Positions 34 to 62,526 of a stretch of DNA of 64,000 nucleotides are shown piece by piece. The number at the start of each line of letters is the position of its first letter. Positions within the stretch are counted from its first letter, which is position 1. The notes below the pieces were generated by a model. It worked only from the letters and a program-made list of their open reading frames with translations, had not been told where the DNA came from and did not search any database. The stretch spans positions 20,750-84,749 of the forward strand of contig JAQULB010000002.1 of the NCBI GenBank assembly GCA_028718785.1. The letters are read 5' to 3'. Both the position numbers and the translations under genes were made by a program. Origin of the DNA: Minisyncoccota bacterium. GTDB taxonomy: Bacteria > Patescibacteriota > Minisyncoccia > Minisyncoccales > CG1-02-41-26.

Positions 34-675
34 ATGAAGATAAACAAAATTGTTAAGTATTTAATTTTAAGCGACATTGCTTTTTGGACTGGCTGGGGGC
101 TTTTAACTCCGGTTTTTGCCATTTTTATTATTGATAAAATTCAGGGTGGCAATGCTTTGGTGGTTGGTATTTCCTCAGCTGTTTTTTTGGGAGTGCGTTC
201 AATTTTAAGAATACCGCTTGGCAAGGCGCTTGATAATAGAGTTTCAGAAAAGGATGATTATTTAGTTATGGTTTTGGGAACATTTATTGCCTCTTTGGTT
301 TCTTTTGGTTATATTTTTTCTTATTTGCCTTGGCATATTTATTTATTGGAAATAGTCCACGGAATTGGGTTAGCTTTGGCCTTGGCAGGCTGGACTGCCA
401 TATTTACCCGTCATATTGACAAGGGCAAGGAGTCAACTCAGTGGGGATGGAATGAAACCACTTTGGGACTGGGAATGGGGGTGGCTGGGGCTTTGGGCGG
501 TTTTTTTGTGACTAAGTTTGGCTTTAATTTAGTTTTTTTATTAGTGGGTATTTTGGGAATTATTGGAACAATTTTATTGCTTGGGTTAAAAAATGAAATA
601 AAAGGCGTTTTTGACCACGGCCTAAAAGTGCCAGTAAAGGAGATATTTAGCCCCAATGTGTCAAATAAAATTTGA
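34..675 (+). CDS. MFS-type transporter-like membrane protein (half-size, about 6 TM helices)
   Basis: Hydrophobic helices throughout. The loop LGKALDNRVSEKD resembles the MFS 2-3 loop motif. Short for a complete MFS. Confidence 0.45.
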   Translation: MKINKIVKYLILSDIAFWTGWGLLTPVFAIFIIDKIQGGNALVVGISSAVFLGVRSILRIPLGKALDNRVSEKDDYLVMVLGTFIASLVSFGYIFSYLPWHIYLLEIVHGIGLALALAGWTAIFTRHIDKGKESTQWGWNETTLGLGMGVAGALGGFFVTKFGFNLVFLLVGILGIIGTILLLGLKNEIKGVFDHGLKVPVKEIFSPNVSNKI

Positions 676-758
676 ATAAGCACCTAATTTTTGGCCAAAA
701 GTTTAAAATTAAGATTCGAGGAGATAGTTATCAATAACACATAAAAAACTCTTAGTAT

Positions 759-950
759 ATGACATTTGATTTTTCTGGAATTTTTTTTAAAAATGTTTCA
801 TCTATTGCCAGTTTATTTTTAATTGGAGCGTTGGCCTTTATTTTGGGAACTTATGTTATTATTGAAGCAGGAAGAATAGAAAAACTTCAAAAGCCGCTAC
901 CACTCTATGTGGGGCATTTTTCAACCACAACTTTTTTAGGCGATTATTAA
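759..950 (+). CDS. hypothetical small membrane protein
   Basis: 63-aa ORF with one hydrophobic helix; no recognisable motif. Confidence 0.25.
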   Translation: MTFDFSGIFFKNVSSIASLFLIGALAFILGTYVIIEAGRIEKLQKPLPLYVGHFSTTTFLGDY

Positions 951-980
951 AAAATAATAAATATTTTATAGTTTTTATTT

Positions 981-1139
981 ATGGCAACACAACAAAATAT
1001 AAATCAGCCCCAAGAGGAGGGAAAAACTCCCGCTCCAGAAAATTCAACTGAACCGCCACAAAAAATTAGTTTAGTGTGGGTGCTTTTTGGCATTGCTGGT
1101 GTCTTGCTTATGTGGTTTGTTTCATCTAAGCTGTTTTAA
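981..1139 (+). CDS. hypothetical 52-aa protein with C-terminal TM helix
   Basis: Hand-translated ATG ORF below the track cutoff (MATQQNINQPQEEGKTPAPE...LVWVLFGIAGVLLMWFV). It fills the gap before the next gene. Confidence 0.3.
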   Translation: MATQQNINQPQEEGKTPAPENSTEPPQKISLVWVLFGIAGVLLMWFVSSKLF

Positions 1140-7710: not shown

Positions 7711-7749
7711 ATGTGTAATTATTATGCGACCGCACAAAAAAATACACAT
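7711..7749. repeat. left terminal inverted repeat / hairpin of PaaX-like module 1
   Basis: atgtgtaattattatgcgaccgcacaaaaaaatacacat. The ends ATGTGTA/TACACAT are self-complementary, and the whole is the reverse complement of 8323-8360. Confidence 0.9.
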
Positions 7750-7760
7750 TGGTTGGTTTA

Positions 7761-8318
7761 ATGAATAAAAACAAAGCGATTAAAATTTCTAAAGAAATTT
7801 TAAAATATCTTCTAATAAGCGGAGCGATTTTAATTGCCGCGTCTTCCCCCTACTTTGCGTCAAGTTTAATAAGAGATATAAAAAGATTTAAGGCCAAAGA
7901 TAAGCAAAAAGTAAATAGCGCTTTTCAATATTTAAGAAGAAATGGACTTATTAAAGTTGAAAAATATGGTTTTGACGCTCGTATTTCTCTTACCGAAAAG
8001 GGTAAAAAGAGGGCAGGAAAATATCAAATTAACGACTTAAAAATTGAAATTCCTAACAAATGGGATGGAAAATGGCGAGTAATTATTTTTGATATTCCAG
8101 ATATTTCTAAAACAGTTAGAAATATTTTCAGAACTAAATTAAAAGAATTTAATTTTTATTCATTGCAAAAAAGCGTTTGGGTACATCCCTATAATTGCAA
8201 AAAAGAAATTGAGATTTTAAGAGATTTTTTAGGAGCAAATAGCAACCAAATTCAATTTATATTAGCTGAAGAAATTGAGCATGAAGAAAAATTAAAAAAA
8301 GTTTTTAAAATTATTTAA
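7761..8318 (+). CDS. PaaX-family protein: N-terminal wHTH + Cas2-like central domain
   Basis: LRRNGLIKVEK...LTEKGKK (wHTH), then WDGKWRVIIFDIPD...LQKSVWVHPY (Cas2/PaaX-type beta1 Asp and QxSV motif). Paralog of 57301-57903. Confidence 0.7.
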   Translation: MNKNKAIKISKEILKYLLISGAILIAASSPYFASSLIRDIKRFKAKDKQKVNSAFQYLRRNGLIKVEKYGFDARISLTEKGKKRAGKYQINDLKIEIPNKWDGKWRVIIFDIPDISKTVRNIFRTKLKEFNFYSLQKSVWVHPYNCKKEIEILRDFLGANSNQIQFILAEEIEHEEKLKKVFKII

Positions 8319-8322
8319 TTTG

Positions 8323-8360
8323 ATGTGTAATTTTTGTGCGGTCGCATAATAATTACACAT
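8323..8360. repeat. right terminal inverted repeat / hairpin of PaaX-like module 1
   Basis: atgtgtaatttttgtgcggtcgcataataattacacat equals the reverse complement of the left arm with one mismatch and one 1-nt indel. Confidence 0.9.
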
Positions 8361-12614: not shown

Positions 12615-12949
12615 CTCAAAGGAATTGCTTTTTTTTATTTTTATAGTAGGATTTTAGTATAAGCTTGTTTAGCTTATATATCTTTAATAAAAAGGAGGGT
12701 TGATGCAACATGAGACAATTCGTGTCTTTTGCAGGATAGAATTTACAGAGGAAAAACAAAAAAAAGAGGCGCACCCCTCTACTCAAAAGATTTTATAACC
12801 TTCGTTTAATCCCTAAACCTGCAAGGGGGCAAACGAGCAAGATTATAAAGTTTTGGTGCATACCTGGTAGAGTAACGCTTGTAGAAGCACTACCAGGATT
12901 TTATTTATTAAAAAAAATGTTAAGATTTAACTAATATTAGTTTATTATT

Positions 12950-16180: not shown

Positions 16181-17557
16181 ATGGATTTAATGCAAAATAT
16201 AACATCTTTATGCAAAAGGCGGGGTTTTGTTTTTGCTTCCTCGGAAATTTACGGAGGTTTTTCAGCTGTTTATGATATGGGACCATACGGGGTTGAATTG
16301 GCAAACAACATTAAAAATGCCTGGTGGAAAGCAATGGTGCAAGAAAGAGAAGATATAGTGGGGCTTGATTCGGCCATTTTTATGCATCCCAAAATTTGGG
16401 AGGCCTCTGGCCATGTTGGCGGGTTTTCTGACCCATTAACTGAATGTAAAAAATGCCATTCTCGTTTGAGAGTTGATCATTTGCTTGAAGATGTAAATAT
16501 TTTTGCTGATGAAAAAATGACTGAAAAAGAAATTAACGAACTTTTTGATACTCATAAAAGCAAGATAAAATGTCCCAACTGCGCCAAATCTGATTGGACA
16601 AAAGTTAAAAAGTTTAATTTATTAGTTAAGGCCAATTTAGGAAATTTTACTGAGGACTGGAATAAAGACCCAGTTTATCTGCGAGGAGAGACCTGTCAGG
16701 GAATTTATGTTAATTATTTAAATGTTTTAAATTCAAGCAGGGCGCAAATTCCTTTTGGCATTGCTCAAATCGGCAAGGCGTTTCGCAATGAAATAACCGC
16801 TCGTCAATTTATTTTTAGAACTCGCGAGTTTGAACAAATGGAAATGCAGTATTTTTGCTCGCCCGATCAAGAAATGCAAGAATATGAAAAATTAAGGCAA
16901 GCAAGATGGCAGTATTATTTGAATTTGGGCATTGCAGAAAAAAATTTAAAATGGCACAAACACGAAAATTTGGTTTTTTACGCCAAACAGGCCTACGATA
17001 TTGAATATAATTTTCCATTTGGGTTTAAAGAATTAGAGGGTATTCATGCCCGAAGCGATTATGACTTAACTCAGCATAGCAAGTTTTCTGGAGTGGCTTT
17101 GGATTACACTGACCTAAAAACCAAAGAAAAATACATTCCTCATATTATTGAGTCATCAGTGGGAGTGGGGCGGACAATGTTGGCTGTTTTAACAGAGGCC
17201 TATAAAGAAGAAAAAGCTGAGGGGGGTGAAACTCGGATTGTTTTGAAATTTCCCGCTAAATTAGCGCCCATTAAAGCTGCTATTTTTCCCTTATTGGCCA
17301 ACAAGCCAGAATTAGTGGAAAAAGCCAAAGCTATTTTTAATGAATTGAAAAAAGATTTTATGGTTGAGTTTGATGATTCAGGAAATATTGGCAAAAGATA
17401 CCGCAGGCAAGACGAAATTGGTACGCCCCTTTGCGTTACAATTGATTTTGACACTTTAACAGATGACACTGTAACTTTACGCGATAGAGACACAATGAAA
17501 CAAGAAAGAGTAAAAACAATTGATTTAAAAAATGTTTTGCAAGAAAAATTAAAATAA
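16181..17557 (+). CDS. glyQS: glycyl-tRNA synthetase (dimeric class II type)
   Basis: RRGFVFASSEIYGG, LRGETCQGIY, FRNEITARQFIFRTREFEQME and a C-terminal anticodon-binding domain. Confidence 0.9.
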   Translation: MDLMQNITSLCKRRGFVFASSEIYGGFSAVYDMGPYGVELANNIKNAWWKAMVQEREDIVGLDSAIFMHPKIWEASGHVGGFSDPLTECKKCHSRLRVDHLLEDVNIFADEKMTEKEINELFDTHKSKIKCPNCAKSDWTKVKKFNLLVKANLGNFTEDWNKDPVYLRGETCQGIYVNYLNVLNSSRAQIPFGIAQIGKAFRNEITARQFIFRTREFEQMEMQYFCSPDQEMQEYEKLRQARWQYYLNLGIAEKNLKWHKHENLVFYAKQAYDIEYNFPFGFKELEGIHARSDYDLTQHSKFSGVALDYTDLKTKEKYIPHIIESSVGVGRTMLAVLTEAYKEEKAEGGETRIVLKFPAKLAPIKAAIFPLLANKPELVEKAKAIFNELKKDFMVEFDDSGNIGKRYRRQDEIGTPLCVTIDFDTLTDDTVTLRDRDTMKQERVKTIDLKNVLQEKLK

Positions 17558-17560
17558 CAA

Positions 17561-18232
17561 ATGAAAAGAGAATTTAGTAAAAACGATTTTTTTACCCAAA
17601 AAGCCAAAGAACAGGGCTATCCAGCCCGTTCGGTTTATAAGCTTCAAGAAATAGATGAAAAATTTAATCTCTTGCAAAAGGGCTTTTTTGTTTTAGATTT
17701 GGGAGCGGCCCCTGGGTCTTGGCTTTTGTATATTGCCAATAAAGTTTCAATGACTGGGAAAGCGGTGGGGGTGGATATTTTAGATTTAAATACAGAATTA
17801 CCCAGCAACGCAATCTTTGTTAAAAAGAGTGTTTTAGACACCGATTTTTTAGAAAGCGGAGCCCTGGGGTCCGCCAATTTTAATGTGGTGGTTTCAGACA
17901 TGGCCCCAAACACAACCGGACTTCGCGAGGTTGATGTGGCTAATTGCTTGGAGCTAACCCAAAAGGCCTTGGAAATCGCCAAAGAGGTTTTAGTTGGGGG
18001 TGGCCTTGCCACGCCGAAGCCGAGCGAAGCCCGCCTTCGCCCTAGCGGGCTTCGGCGAGGCGAAGGCGGGGATTTTGTTTGTAAAATTTTTGAAGGTCCT
18101 GGCACTGACAATTTTGTGAAAGAAACAAAAAAATATTTTAAAATGGTAAAAAGATATCGTCCCAGAGCTGTTCGGCGTGGTAGCAAAGAATTTTACCTCA
18201 TCGCCAAAGGATTTAAGGGCAGTAAAATTTGA
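17561..18232 (+). CDS. rlmE: 23S rRNA U2552 2'-O-methyltransferase RlmE (FtsJ)
   Basis: GYPARSVYKLQEID, VLDLGAAPGSW, VVSDMAPNTTG, KIFEG. A GC-rich insert splits the GGxF motif. Confidence 0.85.
   Translation: MKREFSKNDFFTQKAKEQGYPARSVYKLQEIDEKFNLLQKGFFVLDLGAAPGSWLLYIANKVSMTGKAVGVDILDLNTELPSNAIFVKKSVLDTDFLESGALGSANFNVVVSDMAPNTTGLREVDVANCLELTQKALEIAKEVLVGGGLATPKPSEARLRPSGLRRGEGGDFVCKIFEGPGTDNFVKETKKYFKMVKRYRPRAVRRGSKEFYLIAKGFKGSKI
18001..18071. repeat. GC-rich structured insert in rlmE
   Basis: Two interleaved complementary pairs: cgccgaagcc (18012-18021) with ggcttcggcg (18048-18057), and cccgccttcgcc (18030-18041) with ggcgaaggcggg (18059-18070). Encodes LATPKPSEARLRPSGLRRGEG. Confidence 0.8.
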
Positions 18233-19636: not shown

Positions 19637-20515
19637 ATGAAAAATAGCAACTTAAAACAAGAGATTGTTTGGCTGTTAAATGAAAAATATGGGGGAAAAT
19701 TGACAGATAAAGCGAAAAAGGATATAACTCGTTTGCGAGCAGGAGAACCGATTGATTATATTATTGGTCACAAAAATTTTTGTGGGTGTAAAATTGACTT
19801 ACGATACAAACCGCTTATCCCAAGAGACGAAACAGAATATTGGGTGCAAGGCAACTGCTTGCCTTGCACGGGCGTTTTAGGCGGAGCTCCTGCGGAGCCG
19901 TTAAAAAACGCCCCGGAAAATGCTAAAGATACCTCAATAGGCAAAAAGATACCCACTAGATTTTTAGACATTTTTGCGGGGTCTGGGTGTTGTGGGATTG
20001 CGGTTTTAAAAAATGTTGCAAACAGTCATTGTGATTTTGTGGATATTAATGATAACTGCTTAAAACAAATTCGGTTTAATTTAAAACTGAATGGAATTGA
20101 TAAAAAAAGATACCGCATTATAAAATCAAATATTTTTGAAAAGTTGAAGGGGAGGGCCTGCCCTGAGCGAGCGAAGCGAGTCGAAGGGTATGATGTCATT
20201 TTAGCTAATCCGCCATATATTGGGCTTGGCGAGAAAAGCAAAGTTCAAGAATCGGTTTTAAATTTTGAGCCAAGAATAGCTTTGTTTGCCAAAAATAACG
20301 GTTTGTATTTTATTGAAAAATTTTTAAAGCAAGCCAGAAGTTATTTGGCTCCAGAAGGTGTTATTTATATGGAATTTGGCTATAATCAAAAAATGGACAT
20401 TGAAAAATTGCTTAAAAAATTTAAATATCAAAATTTTGAATTTCACAAAGACCAGTTCGGAAAATGGAGATGGGTGATGGTCAAAAAACATGTTGGTGTT
20501 GACAAATTGAAATAA
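19637..20515 (+). CDS. prmC: release factor glutamine N5-methyltransferase PrmC (HemK)
   Basis: GEPIDYIIG, FAGSGC, ILANPPYI. Two GC-rich inserts. Confidence 0.8.
   Translation: MKNSNLKQEIVWLLNEKYGGKLTDKAKKDITRLRAGEPIDYIIGHKNFCGCKIDLRYKPLIPRDETEYWVQGNCLPCTGVLGGAPAEPLKNAPENAKDTSIGKKIPTRFLDIFAGSGCCGIAVLKNVANSHCDFVDINDNCLKQIRFNLKLNGIDKKRYRIIKSNIFEKLKGRACPERAKRVEGYDVILANPPYIGLGEKSKVQESVLNFEPRIALFAKNNGLYFIEKFLKQARSYLAPEGVIYMEFGYNQKMDIEKLLKKFKYQNFEFHKDQFGKWRWVMVKKHVGVDKLK
19844..19916. repeat. GC-rich double-hairpin insert in prmC
   Basis: gtgcaaggca/tgccttgcac and gggcgtttt/aaaacgccc stems. Encodes QGNCLPCTGVLGGAPAEPLKNAP. Confidence 0.75.
20156..20189. repeat. GC-rich element (ccctgagcgagcgaagcgagtcgaagggt) in-frame in prmC
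   Basis: 28/29 identical to intergenic 45801-45829. Encodes ACPERAKRVEG immediately before the NPPY motif region. Confidence 0.85.
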
Positions 20516-27169: not shown

Positions 27170-27949
27170 ATGTATATTGATACTCACGCGCATTTAGATG
27201 TGGAGCAATATGACAGCGATAGGGAGCAAGTGATTAAAAACGCCATAAAAAATGGCGTTGGTTTTATTGTTAACCCCAGTTTTGATCTACAAAGCGCCAA
27301 AAAAGCCATTGACTTAGCAAATAAATATGAAAATATTTTTGCTGGTGTTGGGTGCCATCCAAAAACAAGAGAAGAAAGCGGATATGTTTTTAATAAAAAA
27401 GATTATTTAAAAATTATTGGAAACAAAAAAGTGGTGGCTGTTGGGGAGTGTGGCTTGGAATTAGCAAGTTCTAAGATTCCAGAGGGGCAGAAACAAGAAT
27501 TATTAAAACACCAAAAAGAAATTTTTGTTGAGCAAATAAATTTGGCAAAAGAATTTAATTTGCCAATAATTGTGCATTGTCGTAATACCCATAAAGAGGT
27601 TATTGAAATTTTATCAAAAGAAAATAATTTACAAGGAGTTATCCATTGTTTTTCGGGCTCTTGGGGGGATGCTCAAAAATATTTAGAAATGGGGATTTAT
27701 ATTTCGTTTACTGGCATTATTACTTATGCAAACGACTACGATAAAGTGGTAAAAAATACGCCATTGGATAGAATTTTAATTGAAACTGATTGCCCGTATT
27801 TATCGCCTGTTCCGTTGAAGGGGCAAAGAAATGAGCCAGCCAATGTTAAATATGTAGCTCAAAGAATTGCAGAGATTAAGGGGGAGCCATTAGAAAGAGT
27901 TGCTGATATAACCACCCAAAACGCTAAAAAACTCTTTAATTTAAGTTGA
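27170..27949 (+). CDS. tatD: TatD-family metal-dependent hydrolase/DNase
   Basis: IDTHAHLD, GECGLE, HCR, ETDCPYL. Confidence 0.85.
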   Translation: MYIDTHAHLDVEQYDSDREQVIKNAIKNGVGFIVNPSFDLQSAKKAIDLANKYENIFAGVGCHPKTREESGYVFNKKDYLKIIGNKKVVAVGECGLELASSKIPEGQKQELLKHQKEIFVEQINLAKEFNLPIIVHCRNTHKEVIEILSKENNLQGVIHCFSGSWGDAQKYLEMGIYISFTGIITYANDYDKVVKNTPLDRILIETDCPYLSPVPLKGQRNEPANVKYVAQRIAEIKGEPLERVADITTQNAKKLFNLS

Positions 27950-27972
27950 TTTTGGCGTACAATATAACATTT

Positions 27973-30360
27973 ATGGCAGAACAAGAAAAAAAATACGAGC
28001 CAAATAAAATTGAGCCCAAGTGGCAGAAATATTGGGAGAAGGAAGGGTTAAACAGGGCAAAGGACTTTGACAAAAATCCCGCCCAAAGTGCTACGCATAA
28101 TGAGGCGGGCAGGCCAAAGTTTTATTGTTTGGATATGTTCCCATACCCCTCTGGCGCTGGATTGCATGTGGGCCATCCTAAGGGCTACACTGCCACTGAT
28201 ATTATTTCTCGCTATAAGAGAATGAATGGCTTTAATGTATTTCATCCAATTGGCTGGGACGCTTTTGGCTTACCAGCAGAAAACTATGCCATTAAAACCA
28301 AAGTCCACCCCAATGAAAGCACGCATAAAAATATAGCTCATTTCAAAGAGCAGATTAAGTCATTGGGGTTTTCTTATGATTGGGAAAGAGAAATAGACAC
28401 CTCGTCACCCGAGTATTACAAATGGACGCAATGGTTTTTTCTTTTTCTTTACAAAAATGGCTGGGCATACAAAGCAAAAGCAGCCGTTAATTGGTGCGAT
28501 TCCTGCCAAACAGTTTTAGCCAACGAGCAAGCGCAAGATGGAAAATGTGAAAGATGCTCTAGCAATGTTTTACAAAAAGATTTGGAGCAGTGGTTTTTTA
28601 AAATAACTGATTTTAGCGAGGAGTTATTAGCTGGCTTGGATAAGATTGATTGGCCAGAACCAATTAAAATAATGCAAAAAAATTGGATCGGCAAATCTGA
28701 AGGATATGAGATAGATTTTAACATAAAAAATAGTGTAACAAAGTTAGCCGATCGGCACAGTTTGTTACAGATTAGAGTTTTTACAACAAGGATAGATACA
28801 ATTTTTGGCTGTACTTATTTGGTAATAGCCCCTGAACACGAGATAGCCAAGAATCAAGAATTGGGAATTAAGAATTATGAAGAAGTAAAAGATTACGTTG
28901 AGACAGCGAAAAAGAAAAGCGAACGGGACAGGCAAGCTGATGTAAAAGATAAAACGGGCGTGAAGTTGGAAGGCGTTACGGCAATTAATCCAGCTAATGG
29001 AAAAGAAATTCCAATTTTTGTGGCTGATTATGTTTTATCAAGTTATGGCACGGGAGCAATAATGGCAGTTCCCGCTCAAGATGAAAGGGATTTTGAGTTT
29101 GCGAAAAAATTTAATTTGCCAATTGTTGAAGTTCCAAATTCTATGGAAATGGCAGAAAAAGGCATAGCAAAGAAAAAAATAAATTATAGATTAAGAGATT
29201 GGCTGGTTTCACGCCAGCGTTATTGGGGAGCTCCCATTCCCATTGTTTATTGCGAGAAATGCGGAGAGCAGGCAGTGCCAGAAAAAGATTTGCCGGTATT
29301 GCTGCCAACAGATGTTGATTTTATGCCAACAGGCGAATCGCCCTTGGTAAAATCAAAAGAATTCCATAAAGTTAAATGTCCAAAATGCGGCGGGCCAGCT
29401 AGGCGGGAAAGCGATACTATGGATACTTTTGTTTGTTCGTCTTGGTATTTTTTTCGCTATCTTGACCATAAAAATAAAAATGAATTTGCTGATAAAAAAT
29501 TAATTGATTATTGGCTACCAGTTGATTTGTATGTGGGCGGGGCGGAACATGCGGTTTTACATCTTTTATATGCTCGTTTTTTTGCTAAGGCGTTGAAAAG
29601 AATTAGCTTGATTGGCTTTGACGAACCATTTTTAAAGCTGAGAAATGTTGGTTTAATTCTGGCCGAAGGTGGAGTAAAAATGAGCAAATCAAAGGGCAAT
29701 GTTATAAACCCTGATGATATTGTTAAAGAATACGGCGCTGATACTTTAAGGATTTACGAAATGTTTATGGGGCCTTTTGACCAAGCTATTGCTTGGGATA
29801 CAAAAGGGGTTGGGGGGGCGAGAAGATTCTTAGACAGGATATATAAATTAAAAGAAAGAGTTTCTGCTAAGAGCAGTAATTTAGAGCTTGAAAAAGCAGT
29901 TAATAAAATAATTAAAAAAGTCGGGGAAGATATTGAACAGATGAAATTTAATACAGCCATTTCTTCGTTAATGATTTTGCTTAACGAAATGGAAGGGGAA
30001 GAAGAAATTTCGGGTGATATTTTTGAAAGGTTTTTATTGCTTTTAGCGCCTTTTGCCCCGCACATCGCTGAGGAGTTATATGAAGGATTCAAGATTCAAG
30101 ATTCAAGATTCAAGAATGGATCAATCTTTGAGCAAGAGTGGCCAAAGTACGATACCGCCTTACTAAAGGAGGAAAAAGTTAATATAGTGGTTCAAATAAG
30201 CGGCAAGGCAAGAGGAGTTGTGGAAGTTGAAACAGGTGCGAGCGAACAAGAGGTTTTAGATATAGTCAAAGCAGATTCAAAGATAAATAAATGGATAGAA
30301 GGGCAAAATATTAAAAAAGTCATTTTTATCCAAAATAAATTAATTAATCTAGTTTTATAG
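27973..30360 (+). CDS. leuS: leucyl-tRNA synthetase
   Basis: PYPSGAGLHVGHPKGY (HIGH), VKMSKSKGN (KMSKS), CP1 editing domain. Start placed at the ATG at 27973. Confidence 0.95.
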   Translation: MAEQEKKYEPNKIEPKWQKYWEKEGLNRAKDFDKNPAQSATHNEAGRPKFYCLDMFPYPSGAGLHVGHPKGYTATDIISRYKRMNGFNVFHPIGWDAFGLPAENYAIKTKVHPNESTHKNIAHFKEQIKSLGFSYDWEREIDTSSPEYYKWTQWFFLFLYKNGWAYKAKAAVNWCDSCQTVLANEQAQDGKCERCSSNVLQKDLEQWFFKITDFSEELLAGLDKIDWPEPIKIMQKNWIGKSEGYEIDFNIKNSVTKLADRHSLLQIRVFTTRIDTIFGCTYLVIAPEHEIAKNQELGIKNYEEVKDYVETAKKKSERDRQADVKDKTGVKLEGVTAINPANGKEIPIFVADYVLSSYGTGAIMAVPAQDERDFEFAKKFNLPIVEVPNSMEMAEKGIAKKKINYRLRDWLVSRQRYWGAPIPIVYCEKCGEQAVPEKDLPVLLPTDVDFMPTGESPLVKSKEFHKVKCPKCGGPARRESDTMDTFVCSSWYFFRYLDHKNKNEFADKKLIDYWLPVDLYVGGAEHAVLHLLYARFFAKALKRISLIGFDEPFLKLRNVGLILAEGGVKMSKSKGNVINPDDIVKEYGADTLRIYEMFMGPFDQAIAWDTKGVGGARRFLDRIYKLKERVSAKSSNLELEKAVNKIIKKVGEDIEQMKFNTAISSLMILLNEMEGEEEISGDIFERFLLLLAPFAPHIAEELYEGFKIQDSRFKNGSIFEQEWPKYDTALLKEEKVNIVVQISGKARGVVEVETGASEQEVLDIVKADSKINKWIEGQNIKKVIFIQNKLINLVL
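28078..28109. repeat. 32-nt CCCGCC-N20-GGCGGG element, copy 3 (in-frame in leuS)
   Basis: cccgcccaaagtgctacgcataatgaggcggg; encodes PAQSATHNEAG in the same codon phase as copies 1 and 2. Confidence 0.85.
28733..28770. repeat. GCCGATCGGC-core palindromic element (variant) in-frame in leuS
   Basis: gtgtaacaaagttagccgatcggcacagtttgttacag, with tgtaacaaa/tttgttaca arms. Encodes VTKLADRHSLLQ. Confidence 0.85.
30086..30113. repeat. heptamer tandem repeat inside leuS (gattcaa x4)
   Basis: Perfect 4x7 bp; encodes GFKIQDSRFKN. Confidence 0.9.
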
Positions 30361-35678: not shown

Positions 35679-36593
35679 TTAATTTAATGAATAAATATTT
35701 CCTCCTAAATTTTTTATTTTATCTTCTAATTCCATTATACAGATAATTCCAGATATTGCTTGAGAAGGCAGTTTTGTTATTTCAATTATTTTATCAATAT
35801 GTAGAGGTCCATTTTCCAGAGCGCTTGCCACTAATAGTTCTTCTGGGGGTAAAAATAGGTTTTGGGTTTGATTGGTTTTTTCTTCTCCAAGCTCTTTTAA
35901 AATATCATTGGCGCTTTCAACTAATTTAGCGCCTTGCTTAATTAGCAAATGAGGCCCTTTGGAATTTTGATTGTGAATGTCTCCTGGGATAGCGAAAATT
36001 GGTTTTTTGTATTTTTTTGCGTATTTAGCGGTTATTAGTGCCCCTGATTTTATTTTTGCTTCAACCACCAAAACCCCAGCTGACAACCCTGCTATTATGC
36101 GGTTTCTTTTGGGAAATGTAAAGTTTGCGCCCCTAGTTTCTGGAGAATATTCTGAAATTAAACATCCGTTTTTTTCTAAAATTTCTTTAGCTAATTTTAA
36201 GTTTTCTTGAGGGTAAATAACATTTTCGCTAAGCCCTGTCCCAAAAACTGCCATTGTTGAGCAAAAATTAGCGGAAGTCCGACGTCCGCTAATTTGGACG
36301 CTGTAGTTTTTTAAAGCGCCTTTGTGACTCCAAGTGTCAATGCCCAATGCCATACCAGAAACAATGCAAAAGCCCGCTTGAGACAAATCTTTAGCAATAG
36401 AAAAAGCGATTTCTTTTCCATAATTACTAGGCAATCTTGTTCCCACAATAGCAAAAAATTTTTCATTGGGTTTGAAATTACCCCTAAAAAACAACTCTTG
36501 TGGAGCTTCAGCAATATTTTTTAGAGTTTCTGGGAAAAGCGAGTCGCTTGGAGTTATTTTTTGAATTGGAAAATTTTGTAAAAACCTGTCCAT
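35679..36593 (-). CDS. dprA: DNA processing protein DprA (Smf)
   Basis: VGTRLPSNYG, IVSGMALGIDTWSH and the Rossmann-like core. A palindromic insert sits at 36265-36295. Confidence 0.85.
   Translation of the reverse strand: MDRFLQNFPIQKITPSDSLFPETLKNIAEAPQELFFRGNFKPNEKFFAIVGTRLPSNYGKEIAFSIAKDLSQAGFCIVSGMALGIDTWSHKGALKNYSVQISGRRTSANFCSTMAVFGTGLSENVIYPQENLKLAKEILEKNGCLISEYSPETRGANFTFPKRNRIIAGLSAGVLVVEAKIKSGALITAKYAKKYKKPIFAIPGDIHNQNSKGPHLLIKQGAKLVESANDILKELGEEKTNQTQNLFLPPEELLVASALENGPLHIDKIIEITKLPSQAISGIICIMELEDKIKNLGGNIYSLN
36265..36295. repeat. 31-bp palindrome aaattagcgga-agtccgacg-tccgctaattt in-frame in dprA
   Basis: Read directly; a related copy gcagaggtccgacctccgctaattt lies at 36694-36720. 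Confidence 0.85.
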
Positions 36594-36970: not shown

Positions 36971-39178
36971 CTAATAGTCGTTTTTCTTTAATTTTTCTAC
37001 GGCCTCAGATAACATTTGGCAGTATAGATTTAGGCCAATGCGGTTAACCGAGCCAGATTGCTCACGGCCCAAAATATTGCCTGCTCCTCGAATTTCCAAG
37101 TCCGCTTGCGCAATTTTGTATCCACTACCCAACTCTTCAGCTTGTTTTAAGGCAGTAAGTCGCTGTTTGGCCAAACCCTTTAAAGTATTTTTGGGATATA
37201 AAAAGTAGGCGTTGGCTTGGGTATTGCTTCGGCCAATCCGGCCTCGCAACTGATAGGCCTGGGCCAAGCCCAAGCGGGTGGCGTTGTCCACAATTAAAGT
37301 GTTGGCATTGGAAATATCTAATCCGTTTTCAATAATAGTGGTGGCTAAAAGCAAGTTAGTTTTTCCGGTTTGAAAATCGCTTAAGGCCTTTACAATTTCT
37401 TTGTCTGGCAGTTTGGCGTGCAAAACGCCAATTTTAACTTTTGATTTTTCTAACTCAAAGCGTATCAAAGTTGGCCGATCGGCACAGATTGACACACTTT
37501 TGGAAGATGGTTTTTTGTTAAGAAGTTCCTCTAACAAAAGCTTAAAGGCATTGATTGTTTCCACTCTGTTGTGCAAGAAATAAATTTGTCCGCCTCGTTT
37601 TAGTTCATTTTCAATAGCGTTTTTTATAACATCTTTTTTAAATGGTAAAATAAATGTCTTTACTGGTTTACGGCCTTGGGGAGGAGTTTGAATAAAGCTG
37701 ATTTCTTTTAAAGACGACAAAGCCAAGTAAAGAGTGCGGGGGATTGGCGTGGCCGAAAGATAAAGAATGTCAATTGAGGGATTTGTTGTTCTTAATTTTT
37801 CTTTTTGTTTAACACCAAACCTTTGCTCATCATCAATGATTAAAAGTCCCAAGTTTTTAAATTCAATATTTTTAGCTAAAACGCTATGGGTGGCAATCAA
37901 AATATCCACGTTGCCATCTTTTAAGCCCTGTAGAATTTTGGGTTTTTCGTTTTTGTTTTGAAGCCGTGAAAGTAAAGCTACTTTTACGGGCAAGCCAGTT
38001 AGCCGTTTCTGAAAAGTATTAAAATGTTGGGTGGCCAAAATGGTGGTGGGGCACATAATTACTGCTTGCTTGCTGTTTTCAGCAGCCAATGTGGCTGCCC
38101 TTAAAGCCACTTCGGTTTTGCCAAAACCAACATCCCCGCAAATTATGCGGTCAATGGGTTTTTGTTTGCTAAAATCGTTTTCAATTTCGTTTAAACACTG
38201 GGATTGGTCTGGGGTTAAAGTATAAGGAAAAGTGGCCTCTAATTTTTCGTAAATTTCTGTTTTGCTGTATGCGGGTCTAGTGGCAAGTTCCTTTAAAGCA
38301 AACATTTCCAAAAGTTCTTTGGCAAATTTTTCAGCGTCTTCTTTTATTTTATATTTTGTTTTTTGCCAAAATATACCTCCAAGCCGGGATAATTTTGGCT
38401 CAACAAAACCAAGATATCGCGTTAGCTTTCTCTCAAGCCCAACAGGCACAAAAAGTTTGTCTCCTTGGGCGTATTCTAAAACATAGTATTCTTTGGCTGG
38501 CGAAGTGGCGGAAACCTTTTCAGGGTACGCTTGTTCGCCCAGCGCGCTCACTCGCTCCTGTCCTCGGCTCGCTCTCTCACTATGTTCGAACCCTGCCCGC
38601 TCGCCTGCGGATGCCCCTGAAAAGGTTTCTGCCACTTCGCTTTCTTGAACCGTTTGTATTTCTAAGAATCGGGAGATGCCGTGGTCAAGGTGTACTAAAT
38701 AATCCCCGGTTTTTAGGCCTTTTAAATCGCTAAAGATTTTTTGGGATTTTAATTTCTTTTTTAAAACATTTTTGGCGGTTTCTTCGTTGGTTATTTCAAT
38801 TGGCAGTTTTTCGATTGTTTCAATGGTGTTGCCTAAAAAATCTAAACGAAAAGCAAAAAAGGAGTTAATGGGGAAAATTTCCACAACTCCTCCAATTTGA
38901 GAAAATTCGCCTGGCTCGGTTATTTTGAAAACTTTTTCATAGCCCATTTCATCAATTTTTTTTAAAACTTCAGAAATGTTTATTTTTTGATTTGCTTCTA
39001 AAAATAAAGTATTGTCTTGCCAAAAGGCCTGGGTTTTTTGAGATTTTTTAATATGGCTTAAATTTTCTGTAAACCAAAGAATTTCTTTTTCAAGAAAGTA
39101 GGGGGTGATACTAACAATTAAAGCGCTTTGGAGCGCTTTTTTACTTGCTAAATCCATATTATGGTTATAGTATGGCAA
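36971..39178 (-). CDS. mfd: transcription-repair coupling factor Mfd (short N-terminus)
   Basis: RNAP-interacting domain LVHLDHGI...KLFVPV, helicase motifs GDVGFGKTEVA, DDEQRFGV, RGRIGR. Carries two repeat inserts. Confidence 0.9.
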   Translation of the reverse strand: MPYYNHNMDLASKKALQSALIVSITPYFLEKEILWFTENLSHIKKSQKTQAFWQDNTLFLEANQKINISEVLKKIDEMGYEKVFKITEPGEFSQIGGVVEIFPINSFFAFRLDFLGNTIETIEKLPIEITNEETAKNVLKKKLKSQKIFSDLKGLKTGDYLVHLDHGISRFLEIQTVQESEVAETFSGASAGERAGFEHSERASRGQERVSALGEQAYPEKVSATSPAKEYYVLEYAQGDKLFVPVGLERKLTRYLGFVEPKLSRLGGIFWQKTKYKIKEDAEKFAKELLEMFALKELATRPAYSKTEIYEKLEATFPYTLTPDQSQCLNEIENDFSKQKPIDRIICGDVGFGKTEVALRAATLAAENSKQAVIMCPTTILATQHFNTFQKRLTGLPVKVALLSRLQNKNEKPKILQGLKDGNVDILIATHSVLAKNIEFKNLGLLIIDDEQRFGVKQKEKLRTTNPSIDILYLSATPIPRTLYLALSSLKEISFIQTPPQGRKPVKTFILPFKKDVIKNAIENELKRGGQIYFLHNRVETINAFKLLLEELLNKKPSSKSVSICADRPTLIRFELEKSKVKIGVLHAKLPDKEIVKALSDFQTGKTNLLLATTIIENGLDISNANTLIVDNATRLGLAQAYQLRGRIGRSNTQANAYFLYPKNTLKGLAKQRLTALKQAEELGSGYKIAQADLEIRGAGNILGREQSGSVNRIGLNLYCQMLSEAVEKLKKNDY
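37457..37500. repeat. GTGTCAA..GCCGATCGGC..TTGACAC palindromic element in-frame in mfd
   Basis: aaagcgtatcaaagttggccgatcggcacagattgacacacttt is about 95% identical to the 57214-57259 copy. Encodes (minus strand) SVSICADRPTLIRF. Confidence 0.9.
38500..38640. mobile_element. 141-bp MITE-like GC-rich element with 26-bp terminal inverted repeats, in-frame in mfd
   Basis: gcgaagtggcggaaaccttttcaggg (38500-38525) against cccctgaaaaggtttctgccacttcgc (38614-38640). Length 141 = 47 codons. Encodes ...ETFSGASAGERAGFEHSERASRGQERVSALGEQAYPEKVSATSP... Confidence 0.8.
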
Positions 39179-39570: not shown

Positions 39571-40149
39571 TTAAAGAAGCGACATAATGTTGTGGCTGGC
39601 TTTTTCTAACAAGTCAGCCATGTTTTTTTCTTCGGCTTTAGAAAATTTTTTTAAAACAAAATCTTCAGCTTTTAGGTTTGCGGCAACCGGGTTGCCGTTA
39701 GCTGGGCGAAGTCCTGTAGTGAGCCCTGCTCTACTGCTGGGGCGGATGCCGATACGGATCCTTTTAAAATTTTGGGTTTTTAGGTTATCAATAATTGACT
39801 GAACTCCGCGATGACCACCACTGCTTGAGTTTTCTGCTATTTTTATTTCTCCAAATGGCAAGTCAAAATCATCATGAACTACAATAAGCGTAGAACATGG
39901 AACGTAGAACGTAGAACATAGGGCTTCAACAGAAAAACCAGAGTTATTCATAAATATCTGGGGTTTGGCAAGTAAAACTTTTTGGCTACTAATAACTCCT
40001 TTTGAAATTTCCGCTTTGGATTTTTTGTCTAACTTAAATTTTGGGAAATTGTTTTCTTTTTGCAAAAAATCCAAAAACCTAAACCCTATGTTATGACGGG
40101 TTTTGCGAAATTTTAAACCAGGATTGCCCAAACCAACAATAATTTTCAT
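39571..40149 (-). CDS. pth: peptidyl-tRNA hydrolase
   Basis: MKIIVGLGNPG..TRHNIGF, VVHDDFDLPFG, GGHRGVQSI. Start set at the ATG giving MKIIVGL; the upstream ATGs come from the heptamer repeat. Confidence 0.9.
   Translation of the reverse strand: MKIIVGLGNPGLKFRKTRHNIGFRFLDFLQKENNFPKFKLDKKSKAEISKGVISSQKVLLAKPQIFMNNSGFSVEALCSTFYVPCSTLIVVHDDFDLPFGEIKIAENSSSGGHRGVQSIIDNLKTQNFKRIRIGIRPSSRAGLTTGLRPANGNPVAANLKAEDFVLKKFSKAEEKNMADLLEKASHNIMSLL
39679..39752. repeat. GC-rich insert in pth
   Basis: Contains hairpin cggcaac-cgg-gttgccg. Encodes SSRAGLTTGLRPANGNPVAANL between conserved RIGI and DFVL segments. Confidence 0.7.
39890..39917. repeat. heptamer tandem repeat inside pth (gtagaac/atggaac x4)
   Basis: Read directly; encodes LCSTFYVPCSTL on the minus strand. 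Confidence 0.8.
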
Positions 40150-45760: not shown

Positions 45761-45800
45761 TTTTTTTAGAGCCTGCCGTTCGGCTGAGCTCACGATGAAG

Positions 45801-45829
45801 CCCTGAGCGAGCGAAGCGAGTTGAAGGGT
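45801..45829. repeat. intergenic copy of the ccctgagcgagcgaagcgagtYgaagggt element
   Basis: 28/29 identical to the in-frame prmC copy at 20161-20189. Confidence 0.85.
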
Positions 45830-45867
45830 TATCCACAGGTTGCCTATTTTTTTTGAAGGCATATAAT
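45827..45867 (+). promoter_or_regulatory. DnaA-box + promoter module: gTTATCCACAgg TTGCCT-16-TATAAT
   Basis: Perfect DnaA-box 9-mer at 45829-45837, 2 nt before the -35 hexamer. The 16-mer gttatccacaggttgc recurs at 58511. Confidence 0.55.
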
Positions 45868-52882: not shown

Positions 52883-52958
52883 AAAAGTGTACAAATCTGT
52901 GCCGACTCGCCTTGCTGGAGCCTTCGGCGTAGCGCAGGTCGGCTAACTTTTGACACGG
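52883..52958. repeat. long (nested) variant of the GTGTCAA..GCCGA|..|TCGGC..TTGACAC element
   Basis: aaaagtgtacaaatctgtgccga[ctcgccttgctggagccttcggcgtagcgcaggt]cggctaacttttgacacgg. The 34-nt core insertion is identical to that in the reverse complement of 62451-62526. Confidence 0.9.
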
Positions 52959-57061: not shown

Positions 57062-57213
57062 AATGTATATAATAAAAAATGCCTTTCCATATATATTGGA
57101 AGGGCATTTATATTATAGAAAGGCGATTGGGGCATTTGAAAGGGAATTTGAAGGGGTACTTGGAAGACATTTGGAAGGCATTTTATGTATACTTTATTTA
57201 TAGAAGTGAGTTT

Positions 57214-57259
57214 AAAAGCGTGTCAAAGTTGGCCGATCGGCACGGATTGACACACTTTT
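57214..57259. repeat. GTGTCAA..GCCGATCGGC..TTGACAC element, left flank of PaaX-like module 2
   Basis: aaaagcgtgtcaaagttggccgatcggcacggattgacacactttt, 42 nt upstream of the ATG. Confidence 0.9.
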
Positions 57260-57300
57260 AAGTTTAGTGATAAAGTAAAAAATAAATAGAGAATAGAAAT

Positions 57301-57903
57301 ATGAAGTATTCTTTCCAACAAAAGAAAAGGTCTGTCACTTATAAACTTTTCAGCAAAGGCATAGACGCAACAACCCATATTTTATTAGCCTTGTATGAAA
57401 ATACCCAGTTAGCTAGAGAAGGTTTTCTTAGAGGTTGCCCTCAATATTCTGGTTTTGGATTAGCAAGAGCGGTATTTGGGAAAGATAGTTATCCACAGCC
57501 CAAAAAAGAAGCAATCCGTACCGATCTTTCTCGTTTGCAAAAAGAAGGTTTGATAAAAAAAGACCCAAAACAAAAAATTTATTACTTAACTGATAAGGGA
57601 AAAGAACTTGTAAGCTACATCGAAAATCGTTTTTTAATTTTACAAGAACCTTGGGATAAAAAGTTTCGTGTTGTTATTTTTGATGTGCCAGAAAAGAAAA
57701 GATATTGGAGAGTTTTCTTAAAAAGAGAGTTAGAATTAATGCAATTTCAACAACTCCAAAAAAGTGTTTACATTGGCAAGTATCCTTTGCCAGCAAGCTT
57801 GATAAAAGAAATAGAGGCCGATAATATGGGGGAGTTTGTTTATATTTTTACAGCGGAGAATATTGACAGGCAAGATGAGATTTTAAAAATGCTAAATGAA
57901 TAG
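57301..57903 (+). CDS. PaaX-family protein: wHTH + Cas2-like central domain (paralog 2)
   Basis: LSRLQKEGLIKKD...LTDKGKE (wHTH), then PWDKKFRVVIFDVPEKKR...LQKSVYIGKYP. Homologous to 7761-8318. Confidence 0.7.
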   Translation: MKYSFQQKKRSVTYKLFSKGIDATTHILLALYENTQLAREGFLRGCPQYSGFGLARAVFGKDSYPQPKKEAIRTDLSRLQKEGLIKKDPKQKIYYLTDKGKELVSYIENRFLILQEPWDKKFRVVIFDVPEKKRYWRVFLKRELELMQFQQLQKSVYIGKYPLPASLIKEIEADNMGEFVYIFTAENIDRQDEILKMLNE

Positions 57904-57941
57904 TGTGTCAATCCGTGCCGATCGGCACGGATTGACACACT
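57902..57941. repeat. perfect 40-bp palindrome of the same family, right flank of PaaX-like module 2
   Basis: agtgtgtcaatccgtgccga|tcggcacggattgacacact; overlaps the stop codon. Confidence 0.95.
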
Positions 57942-58022
57942 ATTTAATAAAGAAATTAGCAACGGGGTTGACAAATAGATGTGGTTTTGATAGGTTTGCT
58001 GTAAGTAAATAAAATAATAAAT

Positions 58023-60774: not shown

Positions 60775-60778
60775 TAAT

Positions 60779-61489
60779 ATGGAAAATAAAGAATTTTTAG
60801 AAATAATAAGCTCGTCATTTGTTAAGTTTTTAGAAACCTCTGCCAGAAGTAATAAAAAATTAAAAATACTTCACGGGGCGATAGCTATAGATATAGAGAA
60901 AAGGCTTGGGAAAGGTTATGCCATTTGCTCTCTCGGTTGTGGCGAGGGTAAGGAAGTTAAAATAAGTGGGAGATATATGGATAAAACGGTTGACATAGCA
61001 GTTTATAAGGGCGAGAACGACATAGCGGCGATCGGGGTTAAGTTTGTAATGAATAATTATTCCCAAAATTCAAACAATTATTTTGAAAATATGCTTGGGG
61101 AAACTGCCAATATAAGGGCGAATAAAAAGAAGTATTTTCAAATTTTAATTCTTCCCGAAGAATTACCCTACTATGATAATTCTGGGAAGATTACGCATTG
61201 GGAGAAAATTACAACTCATAACATCAATAAATATATTAAATTGTCTAATGACGATGAAGATGTATTTTTTCATACACCTATCAAAACGCTTATTTGCATA
61301 ATCAAACTGCCAAAACTTGATATTCAAACAATAACCAACAAAACCCAATATAAAAAACATTATTTAGATATTGGGAGTATTAAATTGGATTTTTCCACAA
61401 ACATATCGAATAGTTTTGGTGAAAGGGTGGTTTTGAATGATTATGAAGACTTTATCAAAAAAGTAGTTTTCTTTCTTAAAAGTATCTAA
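60779..61489 (+). CDS. putative type II restriction endonuclease partner
   Basis: Starts 5 nt after the methyltransferase stop and shares its extreme AT-richness. KTVDIAV...AAIGVKFV resembles a degenerate PD-(D/E)XK core. Family not recognised. Confidence 0.45.
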   Translation: MENKEFLEIISSSFVKFLETSARSNKKLKILHGAIAIDIEKRLGKGYAICSLGCGEGKEVKISGRYMDKTVDIAVYKGENDIAAIGVKFVMNNYSQNSNNYFENMLGETANIRANKKKYFQILILPEELPYYDNSGKITHWEKITTHNINKYIKLSNDDEDVFFHTPIKTLICIIKLPKLDIQTITNKTQYKKHYLDIGSIKLDFSTNISNSFGERVVLNDYEDFIKKVVFFLKSI

Positions 61490-61550: not shown

Positions 61551-62450
61551 ATGGCTTGGCCGGGGTTTCAGGATAATGGCGATACATTAACCGACTTGCG
61601 TACAAATTTAACTTGGCAAAAAGATGCTTTAAGCTCTATAAACAATTTTGGAGCCAGTACCACTCAAGACAATGCTGTTGATTTTATAACAGGACAAAAC
61701 AGCGATTGGCGCTTGCCAAATTTTAAAGAGTTAGCCAGTTTGTTTAGCTATGCCCTCCCCAATCCCGGAGTGTGGAGCGGATTTTTAAACATAAAGCCAG
61801 AAAATTATTGGTCAATAAGCAAAAGAATGATTAACGCTCCCACTTGGGGCATACCTCCCCGGTACAGTGGCTGGTCTTTTAATTTCTTAAATGGAATAGT
61901 TGAAAATAATATTTATGACTTGGGGCAAGACAATAATTTTTATTCTTTTATGGCCACTAAAAATCAAGGAATCCCCGGTGGGCTATCGGGTGATGATGAT
62001 TTTGATTTTACCGACAATAATGATGGCACAATAAAAGACAACAAAACTGGCTTAATGTGGCTTAACGCAAATTTATCCCATGTAATGGGCAATCGCAAAA
62101 ATTGGAATTCGGCTTTTATGCTTGCTAATAATGTTGCTTTATGCAACGACGGAACTTTGCAGGGCAATGAAAACAAAGCTGGGGATTGCTTGGCTAATGG
62201 GGGAGTAAAATATGATGACTGGCGATTGCCCAATGTTCAAGAGTTAATGGAAATAACTAAACTGGACAATCAGCCCGGGATTCCTTCAATTTTGCCAAAC
62301 TTGAGCTTGGGTGTTTCTTTCTACTGGACTGGCACAATGTTTGACGCAAATAATGTTTGGTATGTGGGAGATGGGTTTTGTTTTGGTATGGTTAATTACA
62401 GGGCAAAAATTGGCGAGGAGTTTAATGTTCAGCTAGTGCGGGAGGAGTAA
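61551..62450 (+). pseudogene. DUF1566 (Lcl C-terminal domain-like) protein, apparently 5'-truncated
   Basis: Two DUF1566-type modules (..TNLTWQKD..DWRLPNFKELASL.. and ..TGLMWLN..DDWRLPNVQELMEI). The frame stays open upstream to 61467 without a start or signal peptide, and it abuts the R-M island. Confidence 0.55.
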
Positions 62451-62526
62451 CCGTGTCAAAAGTTTGCCGACCTGCGCTACGCCGAAGGCTCCAGCAAGGC
62501 GAGTCGGCGCAGATTGACACGCTTTT
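62451..62526. repeat. long (nested) variant of the palindromic element, inverted relative to 52883-52958
   Basis: ccgtgtcaaaagtttgccgacctgcgctacgccgaaggctccagcaaggcgagtcggcgcagattgacacgctttt starts 1 nt after the DUF1566 stop. Confidence 0.9.

Follow-up and report, generated by a model that had tools for sequence, protein, structure and literature searches.

How does a palindromic repeat come to lie in frame inside the gene of an essential aminoacyl-tRNA synthetase? The question is raised by a stretch of 64,000 nucleotides (nt; hereafter the window) of contig JAQULB010000002.1 from a groundwater Minisyncoccota bacterium (assembly GCA_028718785.1), in which leuS, the gene of leucyl-tRNA synthetase (LeuRS), contains a hairpin-capable palindromic block centred on GCCGATCGGC. 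The same core is found in a second gene and between genes, and two of its intergenic copies tightly bracket a gene, here called paaxA, whose product is a winged-helix protein with a Cas2-like domain (Pfam PaaX_M). We consider it probable, at roughly 70 %, that the block in leuS is one solo copy from a dispersed family of hairpin-forming repeats, the home copies of which bracket the PaaX_M gene.

The leuS product possesses the Pfam domains tRNA-synt_1, LeuRS editing domain and Anticodon_1, its HVGH and KMSKS motifs are intact, and it is identical to P0001, listed at NCBI as 'MAG Candidatus Pacebacteria bacterium' (MAG, metagenome-assembled genome). As the original prediction had stated, bases 28733-28770 lie within this open reading frame (ORF), exactly as quoted and with the frame open, and they are read as ..NSVTKLADRHSLLQIR.. 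between the segments NWIGKSEG and VFTTRIDTIFG. The inverted-repeat arms of the block (28734-28754 and 28749-28769) are 86 % complementary; its RNA fold has −14.2 kcal/mol (z = −4.0), and the covariance model R2 scores it at 58.6 bits.

That the core recurs in mfd and in intergenic DNA was also borne out. In the 64 kb of the window (36 % GC) GCCGATCGGC occurs four times, at 28747 in leuS, at 37474 in an mfd-like gene and at 57232 and 57917 between genes, compared with 0.00 occurrences in 100 dinucleotide shuffles. Together with a longer form the window holds four short and two long copies, to which R2 adds none (Table 1). The family consensus is AAAAGT-GTGTCAA-[AGTTRG/TCTGT]-GCCGATCGGC-ACRGA-TTGACAC-ACTTTT, and two forms recur: a perfect 46-nt palindrome (AAAAGTGTGTCAATCTGTGCCGATCGGCACAGATTGACACACTTTT), represented by copy c4, which is 100 % complementary and folds at −40.3 kcal/mol (z = −12), and an asymmetric form with the left inner arm AAGTT[AGT]G, which is common to the long copies. 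The ends of the long form are those of the short one, and its 33 extra nt are located exactly at the dyad centre, between GCCGA and TCGGC. A known repeat nested in the long form was considered and rejected, as these 33 nt were found only in the two long copies. Nor does the family match any Rfam 15 entry at gathering score; only tmRNA and tRNA were recognised in the window.

Table 1 Positions of the repeat copies and associated genes in the window, and palindromes flanking paaxA homologues at other loci
Feature	Position	Strand	Description
leuS	27946..30360	+	804-aa (amino acid) LeuRS, assigned by Pfam and motifs
c1, 39-nt palindromic block in leuS	28732..28770	+	in frame, codons S263-Q275 = SVTKLADRHSLLQ
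c2	37457..37500	-	in frame in mfd-like gene, ORF 36971..39178(-); reads SVSICADRPTLIR / ..KSVSICADRPTLIR..
c3, asymmetric form	57212..57261	+	intergenic, 40 nt upstream of paaxA
paaxA	57301..57903	+	200-aa winged helix + Cas2-like (Pfam PaaX_M) protein, between c3 and c4
c4, perfect 46-nt palindrome	57899..57944	+	starts at paaxA stop codon
Long form, first copy	52885..52958	-	17 nt 3' of htrA-like gene
Long form, second copy	62451..62520	+	starts 1 nt past stop of ORF 61551..62450
Second, unrelated GC-rich hairpin insert in leuS	28075..28110	+	reads NPAQSATHNEAG; exact 36-nt gain vs all 6 orthologue DNAs
paaxB	7749..8318	+	second PaaX_M gene of the window, probable ATG 7761, 28 % identical to paaxA
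P2	7711..7749	+	palindrome ATGTGTAATTATTATGCGACCGCACAAAAAAATACACAT, immediately upstream of paaxB
P2'	8323..8360	+	reverse complement of P2, 4 nt past paaxB stop
paaxA flanks, L147-150			ATGTGTCAAAAGTTCGTCGATCGACGAACTTTTGACACAT, both sides
paaxA flanks, L151/152			GATGCA..CCGATCG..TGCATC
paaxA flanks, L153			CTTCA..GACGATCGC..TGAAG
paaxA flanks, L154			TGTTTCAAAT.TCTGCGATCGCAGAGATTTGAAACA
paaxA flanks, L155			GACA.TTTATTACGATCG..AAAATGTC
paaxA flanks, L156			TGACATTTGCTCACGATCGTGACGAAATGTCA

The history of the leuS copy was followed in an alignment of 26 LeuRS sequences, with orthologue DNAs taken from separate JGI, ENA and NCBI assemblies. The block is carried by the LeuRS of the window and by P0002, P0003 and P0004 (83 % identical LeuRS). 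It is absent in P0005, P0014, P0006, P0007, P0009, P0011, P0012 and more distant LeuRS, altogether at least eight orthologues, where KN-QE[SQ]K-I[KR]VFTTR is found instead. By this comparison, which the original prediction had proposed as a check, the block is lineage-specific. At the DNA level 39 nt of the filled genes stand against 12 nt of the empty ones; the net gain over empty orthologues is 27 nt or nine codons and not 36-38 nt. The peptide encoded by the block varies (SVTKLADRHSLLQ, SVSNCADRQTLTQ, SVVNLADRQGLTQ, SVSKLADRHSLTH), and the copies of the four orthologues differ from each other with the pairing kept, for example by GTC/GAC to AAC/GTT in the window. In the L124 copy the inner arms are perfectly paired, and the L119 copy corresponds to that of L123 in flipped orientation, its reverse complement differing at 1 of 34 positions. 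Where the leuS site is empty, in L122, L125 and L126, no family copy exists in 49 kb, with R2 as well. Two of these empty sites bear 7-nt tandem repeats, (GAATCAG)x4 in L122 (10700-10740) and (TTTCCAA)x4 in L126 (10715-10760); low-complexity repeats of a similar kind (QETRNKQI, FNFQ) are variable near window position 29863-29874.

The original prediction had placed the block in a variable linker, and the structural comparison agrees. In the AlphaFold model of the LeuRS (mean predicted local distance difference test score, pLDDT, 67.8; 83-89 in the editing domain) residues 262-274 make up a coil at a beta-hairpin tip, between the strands 249-261 and 275-280. The coil is placed four residues ahead of the TTRxDT editing motif, and the model confidence drops there. 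Among solved LeuRS structures the loop is equally long in N. gonorrhoeae (7nty) and 8-9 residues shorter in E. coli (4aq7) and T. thermophilus (1h3n). Because the block is modelled as a coil and the loop varies in length among the PDB structures, a translated surface loop is a structurally plausible state of the insert; in the best reading it landed in a loop of the CP1 editing domain that is permissive, and it would be translated there. Unrelated inserts occur in the same loop, namely VILSQQAKNLGDPSARSPQDD in P0010, P0016, P0017 and P0019 and different ones in P0015, P0020 and P0008. Since several lineages carry unrelated inserts here, the loop is a hot spot of insertion, or a site that is at least permissive. 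Among the LeuRS homologues P0078, P0032/P0042/P0047 and others, a Falkowbacteria LeuRS of 974 aa with a Pfam Y1_Tnp (IS200-like transposase) domain was noticed, and a NUDIX domain fusion is common in the LeuRS of Moranbacteria and Gribaldobacteria.

Copy c2 is missing from the 17 closest Mfd orthologues and thus unique to this genome among 18 aligned. At its site (columns corresponding to window 37448-37522) two more distant Mfd proteins, P0177 and P0184, have different inserts, each containing 'DR' (..AKQSDRSELHH.. and ..TSKNDRSYL..), which may be decayed CGATCG palindromes. A GTTAGA repeat near c2 was considered as a target-site duplication and set aside as probably due to chance.

Outside the window a metagenome scan gave 20 matches. 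Five of these are true family copies, on the low-GC Hainich groundwater contigs L131 (two), L132, L138 and L142; the other 15 are accounted for by an unrelated palindrome or by one conserved gene that a GC-rich gut bacterium carries. The copies of L131, L132 and L138 stand between genes, at a distance of 22-69 nt on the 3' side of a gene, and one of those on L131 has a symmetric GTATC/GATAC change. In L142 the copy is inserted in frame in tsaD, reading GGSVSICADRLTLTQ, and a copy in L153 lies in frame in a Memo-like gene, reading GGSSYDDRHDLNQ. Scans of viral contigs for the short and long forms had no matches, and a scan of a genome collection with GCCGATCGGCACNGNTTG, a pattern that is too loose, yielded chance matches only, in GC-rich genomes (L001-L118).

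Across 22 copies the CGATCG centre is invariant and the arms covary: 81.8 % of the cells are paired compared with 64.9 % after shuffling, double-sided changes are found in 17 of 20 pairs, and none of 500 shuffles reaches the observed values. Each of the seven intragenic copies folds into an imperfect hairpin (−8 to −20 kcal/mol), and perfect hairpins (−26 to −32 kcal/mol) are found in 8 of the 15 intergenic copies. In all four independent intragenic events, and in all four leuS orthologues, the copy has a length that is a multiple of three, contains no stop codon and uses the frame ..(A/D)DR.., the signature expected of selection on translation. Most copies are situated 0-70 nt 3' of genes, flanked by an A-run and a T-run. 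This layout of A-run, hairpin and T-run resembles a bidirectional terminator, and the intergenic copies may have terminator activity. Furthermore, every arm of the palindromes terminates in a TTGACA that faces outward, at 52950 paired with a TATTTT 16 nt downstream, so dispersed copies could donate −35 boxes.

The link between repeat and protein comes from the loci of paaxA homologues. The sample consisted of the paaxA of the window and seven further homologues (32-89 % identity), and CGATCG-centred palindromes with genome-specific arms stand on both sides of the gene at eight of eight loci (32-100 % identity, window included). The loci were chosen by protein and not by palindrome, so the association is not circular. 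Nearly every CGATCG in these loci falls within such a palindrome. Solo copies that carry the arms of their own genome were seen at two places: one follows a sigma-factor gene on its 3' side in L151, and the other is the L153 copy in the Memo-like gene mentioned above. The bracketed gene is present in a single copy and lies beside or after clpB in the window, L149 and L151, and this position, kept in three genomes, indicates that it is vertically inherited and not hopping. The right arm of c3 contains a TTGACA −35-like hexamer (57247), followed 18 nt downstream by TG-n-TAAAGT just upstream of paaxA, and the arrangement is the same in L149; the overlap of the upstream copy with the hexamer suggests autoregulation of paaxA. 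What is new here is this tight bracketing of a gene for a winged-helix and Cas2-like protein by intergenic repeat copies: no description of palindrome-bracketed PaaX_M genes, nor of in-frame repeats in the Candidate Phyla Radiation (CPR), was found in the literature. L153 contains, in addition, a second perfect-palindrome family (TGTGTCAAAATCCTGCGATCGCAGGATTTTGACACA, at 12770-12819 and 17280-17329) whose arms resemble those of the window family and which presumably belongs to another PaaX_M paralogue.

The paaxA product matches Pfam PF20803 at 2e-14, and TIGR02277 partially (5.8e-10, under the cut-off), covering PaaX positions 35-148 of 279. Its AlphaFold model has a pLDDT of 79, and the best PDB matches of a Foldseek search are E. 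coli PaaX (8a39, E 5.6e-5) and Rv0674, while Cas2 and VapD match the C-terminal domain. A Cas2-type motif, FD[IV]PE..R..LQKSV, is invariant in 39 homologues, and this Cas2-like protein keeps the aspartate of FD[IV]PE. The family comprises 4,850 cluster representatives at E <= 1e-10. A similar arrangement is found at paaxB, where P2 and P2' form a 38-39-nt pair in inverted orientation with the centre GCGACCGC, of which the window holds no further copies. L154 likewise has a second PaaX_M gene, bracketed by a palindrome pair centred on CCATGG.

From the bracketing of all eight homologues we infer that the PaaX_M protein recognises the palindrome or its hairpin. That the centre is invariant and the arms covary is more in keeping with recognition of the hairpin tip than of duplex half-sites; symmetric co-evolution of the palindrome with a dimeric protein is a conceivable alternative. 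Extra copies would have spread around the chromosome in this Pacebacteria lineage. As no target-site duplication could be recognised, this spread would more likely be REP-like (REP, repetitive extragenic palindrome) or due to microhomology and template switching than a cut-and-paste transposition of terminal inverted repeats (TIRs). Intragenic copies would persist only if the frame is kept, no stop codon is introduced, the site is a permissive surface loop and the fold is weak. The leuS copy combines these four properties and is predicted to add 13 residues at the entrance of the editing domain. Once inserted, a copy would stay palindromic through paired changes or quasipalindrome template switching, and its peptide would drift meanwhile. 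Quasipalindrome template switching and hairpin-loop inversion are known to yield paired changes and orientation flips, and those seen in leuS may have arisen without selection.

Several observations weigh against this reading. At leuS neither a target-site duplication nor a clean empty-site junction was found, and 9-12 nt of the target are lost or replaced; no duplication is visible at mfd either, in both cases by comparison with empty sites that are 16-18 % diverged. The leuS tree is star-like (bootstrap 12-57 %), and one ancient insertion and several are not separable in it. Among the window ORFs scanned there is no transposase, integrase or REP-associated tyrosine transposase (RAYT). In L154, L155 and L156 the palindromes are confined to the bracketing pair, and their basic function may be plain operator binding, the spread being a separate accident. 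On the two sides of paaxA-type genes the copies point in the same direction, unlike the REPs around RAYTs. The pair on L131 (175-1156) brackets a gene for a winged helix-turn-helix and NUDIX protein (389..1093) and not a PaaX_M gene. Finally, a consensus terminator scan listed none of the intergenic copies.

An ordinary MITE (a miniature transposable element with inverted repeats) could produce some of the same features. The palindrome would then be two abutted TIRs of an insertion sequence (IS) located elsewhere and moved in trans, and the PaaX_M flanks captured operators or a coincidence. The short form can indeed be seen as two 19-nt arms without a spacer, with 33 nt between identical arms in the long form, and the copies are dispersed and differ in presence between genomes. 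However, a target-site duplication is not visible at any copy, and neither an IS nor a transposase is among the window ORFs scanned. The cognate pair with invariant CGATCG at all eight paaxA homologues in different contexts is left unexplained, as are the conserved asymmetric inner arms, and we regard a MITE as unlikely.

Alternatively, nothing would be mobile at all: the palindromes would be operators of a PaaX_M repressor, and the intragenic copies would have evolved or been retained as regulatory or roadblock sites. Such a regulon agrees with the PaaX-like fold of the paaxA product, PaaX being a known repressor, with the 18-nt spacer between the −35-like TTGACA in the upstream copy and TG-n-TAAAGT (window and L149) and with the pairs standing alone in L154-L156. 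It is nevertheless improbable as a full account. A 39-nt block that replaces 12 nt in leuS and is absent from orthologues is an insertion and not an evolution in situ, the same applies to mfd, and near-identical 34-nt cores are located at unrelated loci in different genes. In addition, an invariant centre with covarying arms is the reverse of the usual duplex operator, which is contacted at its half-sites.

A further possibility is that the insert never reaches the protein, because it is cut out of the mRNA or because the ribosome bypasses it, as happens with the mitochondrial 'byp' elements or T4 gene 60. The block is a stable hairpin within a coding region, and GC-rich mobile hairpins in AT-rich genomes are a substrate of known bypassing. 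The intragenic events and leuS orthologues, all multiples of three, free of stops and in the same open frame, make this very improbable. Even less credible is a conserved functional LeuRS peptide with an incidental DNA palindrome. Frame and length are kept in the four orthologues, but the block is lacking in equally close and all more distant LeuRS, the same DNA is non-coding elsewhere and present in mfd, tsaD and the Memo-like gene, and the peptide varies while double changes (GTC/GAC to AAC/GTT) preserve the base-pairing; the orthologue alignment and the DNA comparison refute this reading. An assembly chimera, for which one could argue that perfect palindromes can confuse de Bruijn assemblers and that many paaxA homologues are on contigs of about 0.9 kb, is the least credible of all and is refuted by recurrence, the insert being present at the same codon in the P0001 MAG and in JGI, ENA and NCBI assemblies of relatives, with lineage-specific substitutions, in at least four independent assemblies and with the exact P0002 protein on six contigs.

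The original prediction, which is supported on the whole but did not contain the tie of the family to a PaaX_M gene, had compared the block with REP or MITE insertions and with the Rickettsia palindromic elements (RPE). RPE are repeated palindromes which are found between genes and in frame in unrelated housekeeping genes, where they encode a fold-compatible peptide (PMC10969869). The comparison holds for the behaviour, an in-frame palindromic repeat with a predicted surface peptide in leuS and further in-frame copies in mfd, tsaD and the Memo-like gene. It does not hold for size and host: RPE (families RPE-1 to RPE-10) have about 100-150 bp, occur in Rickettsia (Alphaproteobacteria) and have no known cognate gene, whereas the element described here is three to four times shorter (38-46 bp, long form about 71), belongs to another phylum, Patescibacteria, and brackets a PaaX_M gene; the two are set apart by size and host and not by sequence comparison. 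In-frame palindromic insertion is thus known in kind from Rickettsia, and would here be met in Patescibacteria together with a candidate cognate protein gene. A MITE was not established, as neither a target-site duplication nor, in the 64 kb of the window, a parent IS was found, although inverted repeats are present at the ends (GTGTGTCAA.. and ..TTGACACAC), with 33 nt between them in the long form.

REP sequences are short palindromes in many copies, and the cognate RAYT gene is single-copy, vertically inherited and flanked by its repeats (PMC3337134, PMC3116915, PMC3733652); the REP tag is a GTAG or CGTC tetranucleotide at one end (PMC3733652). The window family resembles them as an imperfect palindrome of 20-40 nt whose internal loop is conserved and which the 64 kb contain six times, and in a repeat sequence that changes between lineages along with the flanked gene. 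In contrast to REPs, its ends (AAAAGTGTGTCAA and TTGACACACTTTT) are without a GTAG or CGTC tag, the flanking copies are direct and not inverted, and no doublets of the REPIN type were seen. Furthermore, the copies are not strictly extragenic, as two of the six in the window are inside genes, as are those in L142 and L153. The flanked gene encodes a winged-helix and Cas2-like protein, and no Y1_Tnp (HUH) domain was detected in the window ORFs scanned. With PaaX the paaxA product shares the architecture of a winged helix and PaaX_M (Cas2-like) domain as well as the best structure match, and a palindromic site that overlaps the promoter region of the gene itself. It differs in its length of 200 aa without the C-terminal ligand-binding domain, and its gene has no paa genes in the neighbourhood; the site measures 38-46 bp, occurs on both sides of the gene and is dispersed, also inside genes. 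A further parallel are the GC clusters and double-hairpin elements of fungal mitochondria, short GC-rich hairpins that have entered an AT-rich genome and there also lie in frame within protein genes. They belong to another type of genome and show no sequence relation, and no protein is known to be associated with them. Integron attC sites were rejected, as GTTAGCC and GTTGGCC do not fit GTTRRRY and the window contains no integrase, and so were CRISPR repeats, of which no arrays are present.

The palindrome family is not the only in-frame invader of this genome. The second leuS insert, NPAQSATHNEAG, is unique to this genome; the hairpin family to which it belongs, CCCGCC..AAAG..AAT.AGGCGGGC, has other copies near 1750-1795 and 6583-6620. 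On the minus strand of the mfd ORF (38500-38630) there is a GC-rich insert of about 45 aa (AETFSGASAGERAGFEHSERASRGQERVSALGEQAYPEKVSATSPA) in the CarD/TRCF RID domain, whose Pfam match spans 100 residues for a profile of 57; orthologues are shorter and different there. Additional GC-rich in-frame inserts are located in an FtsJ-like gene (17996-18061, 22 aa, absent from L122 and L126), in an MTS methyltransferase gene (20153-20185, RACPERAKRVE, the motif again at 45768-45830), in dprA (36258-36308, palindromic, NYSVQISGRRTSANFCS) and in pth (39675-39718, AACGGCAACCCGGTTGCCG, also at 6794-6825). The inserts of these four genes are lineage-specific, and at least five repeat families add loops to housekeeping proteins. 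In the gene of NrdD, the anaerobic ribonucleotide reductase (45986-49309, 1107 aa), the reading frame is broken up by a segment of LAGLIDADG type (residues 518-559, Pfam LAGLIDADG_3); here, too, an essential gene has been invaded in frame, and its L151 orthologue is annotated with intein-splicing domains. At 59335-61489 a type II N6-adenine DNA methyltransferase (PADLOC MTase_II, 1.5e-146) is followed by an ORF of 236 aa without family match, possibly a restriction enzyme. Depletion of GATC (58 against 112) was rejected as a clue to restriction-modification, since most 4-nt palindromes are equally depleted in the window (CTAG 20 against 73, ACGT 21 against 67).

The finding draws its weight mainly from the association of repeat and protein and from the wide extent to which repeats have invaded genes of this genome in frame. 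A bolder proposal, analogous to REPIN-RAYT and in our view doubtful, is that PaaX_M proteins of Patescibacteria and CGATCG hairpins form an undescribed repeat-protein partnership, in which the protein would recognise the hairpin and promote or control its spread, including into essential genes. If the favoured reading of the leuS block is true, a winged-helix/Cas2-fold family of about 190 aa would become a testable candidate partner of the repeat, so that a widespread 'hypothetical' family would acquire a function, and there would be a second, independent long-term association of repeat and protein in the style of REP-RAYT. In the same case the observation made in Rickettsia would be extended to the CPR, where short selfish or semi-domesticated hairpin repeats would remodel essential core proteins; the genome is tiny, yet at least five repeat families add loops to LeuRS, Mfd, DprA, Pth, FtsJ and others. 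This would be relevant for the heterogeneity of protein length and for alignment artefacts in CPR phylogenomics, as well as for the origin of new surface loops.

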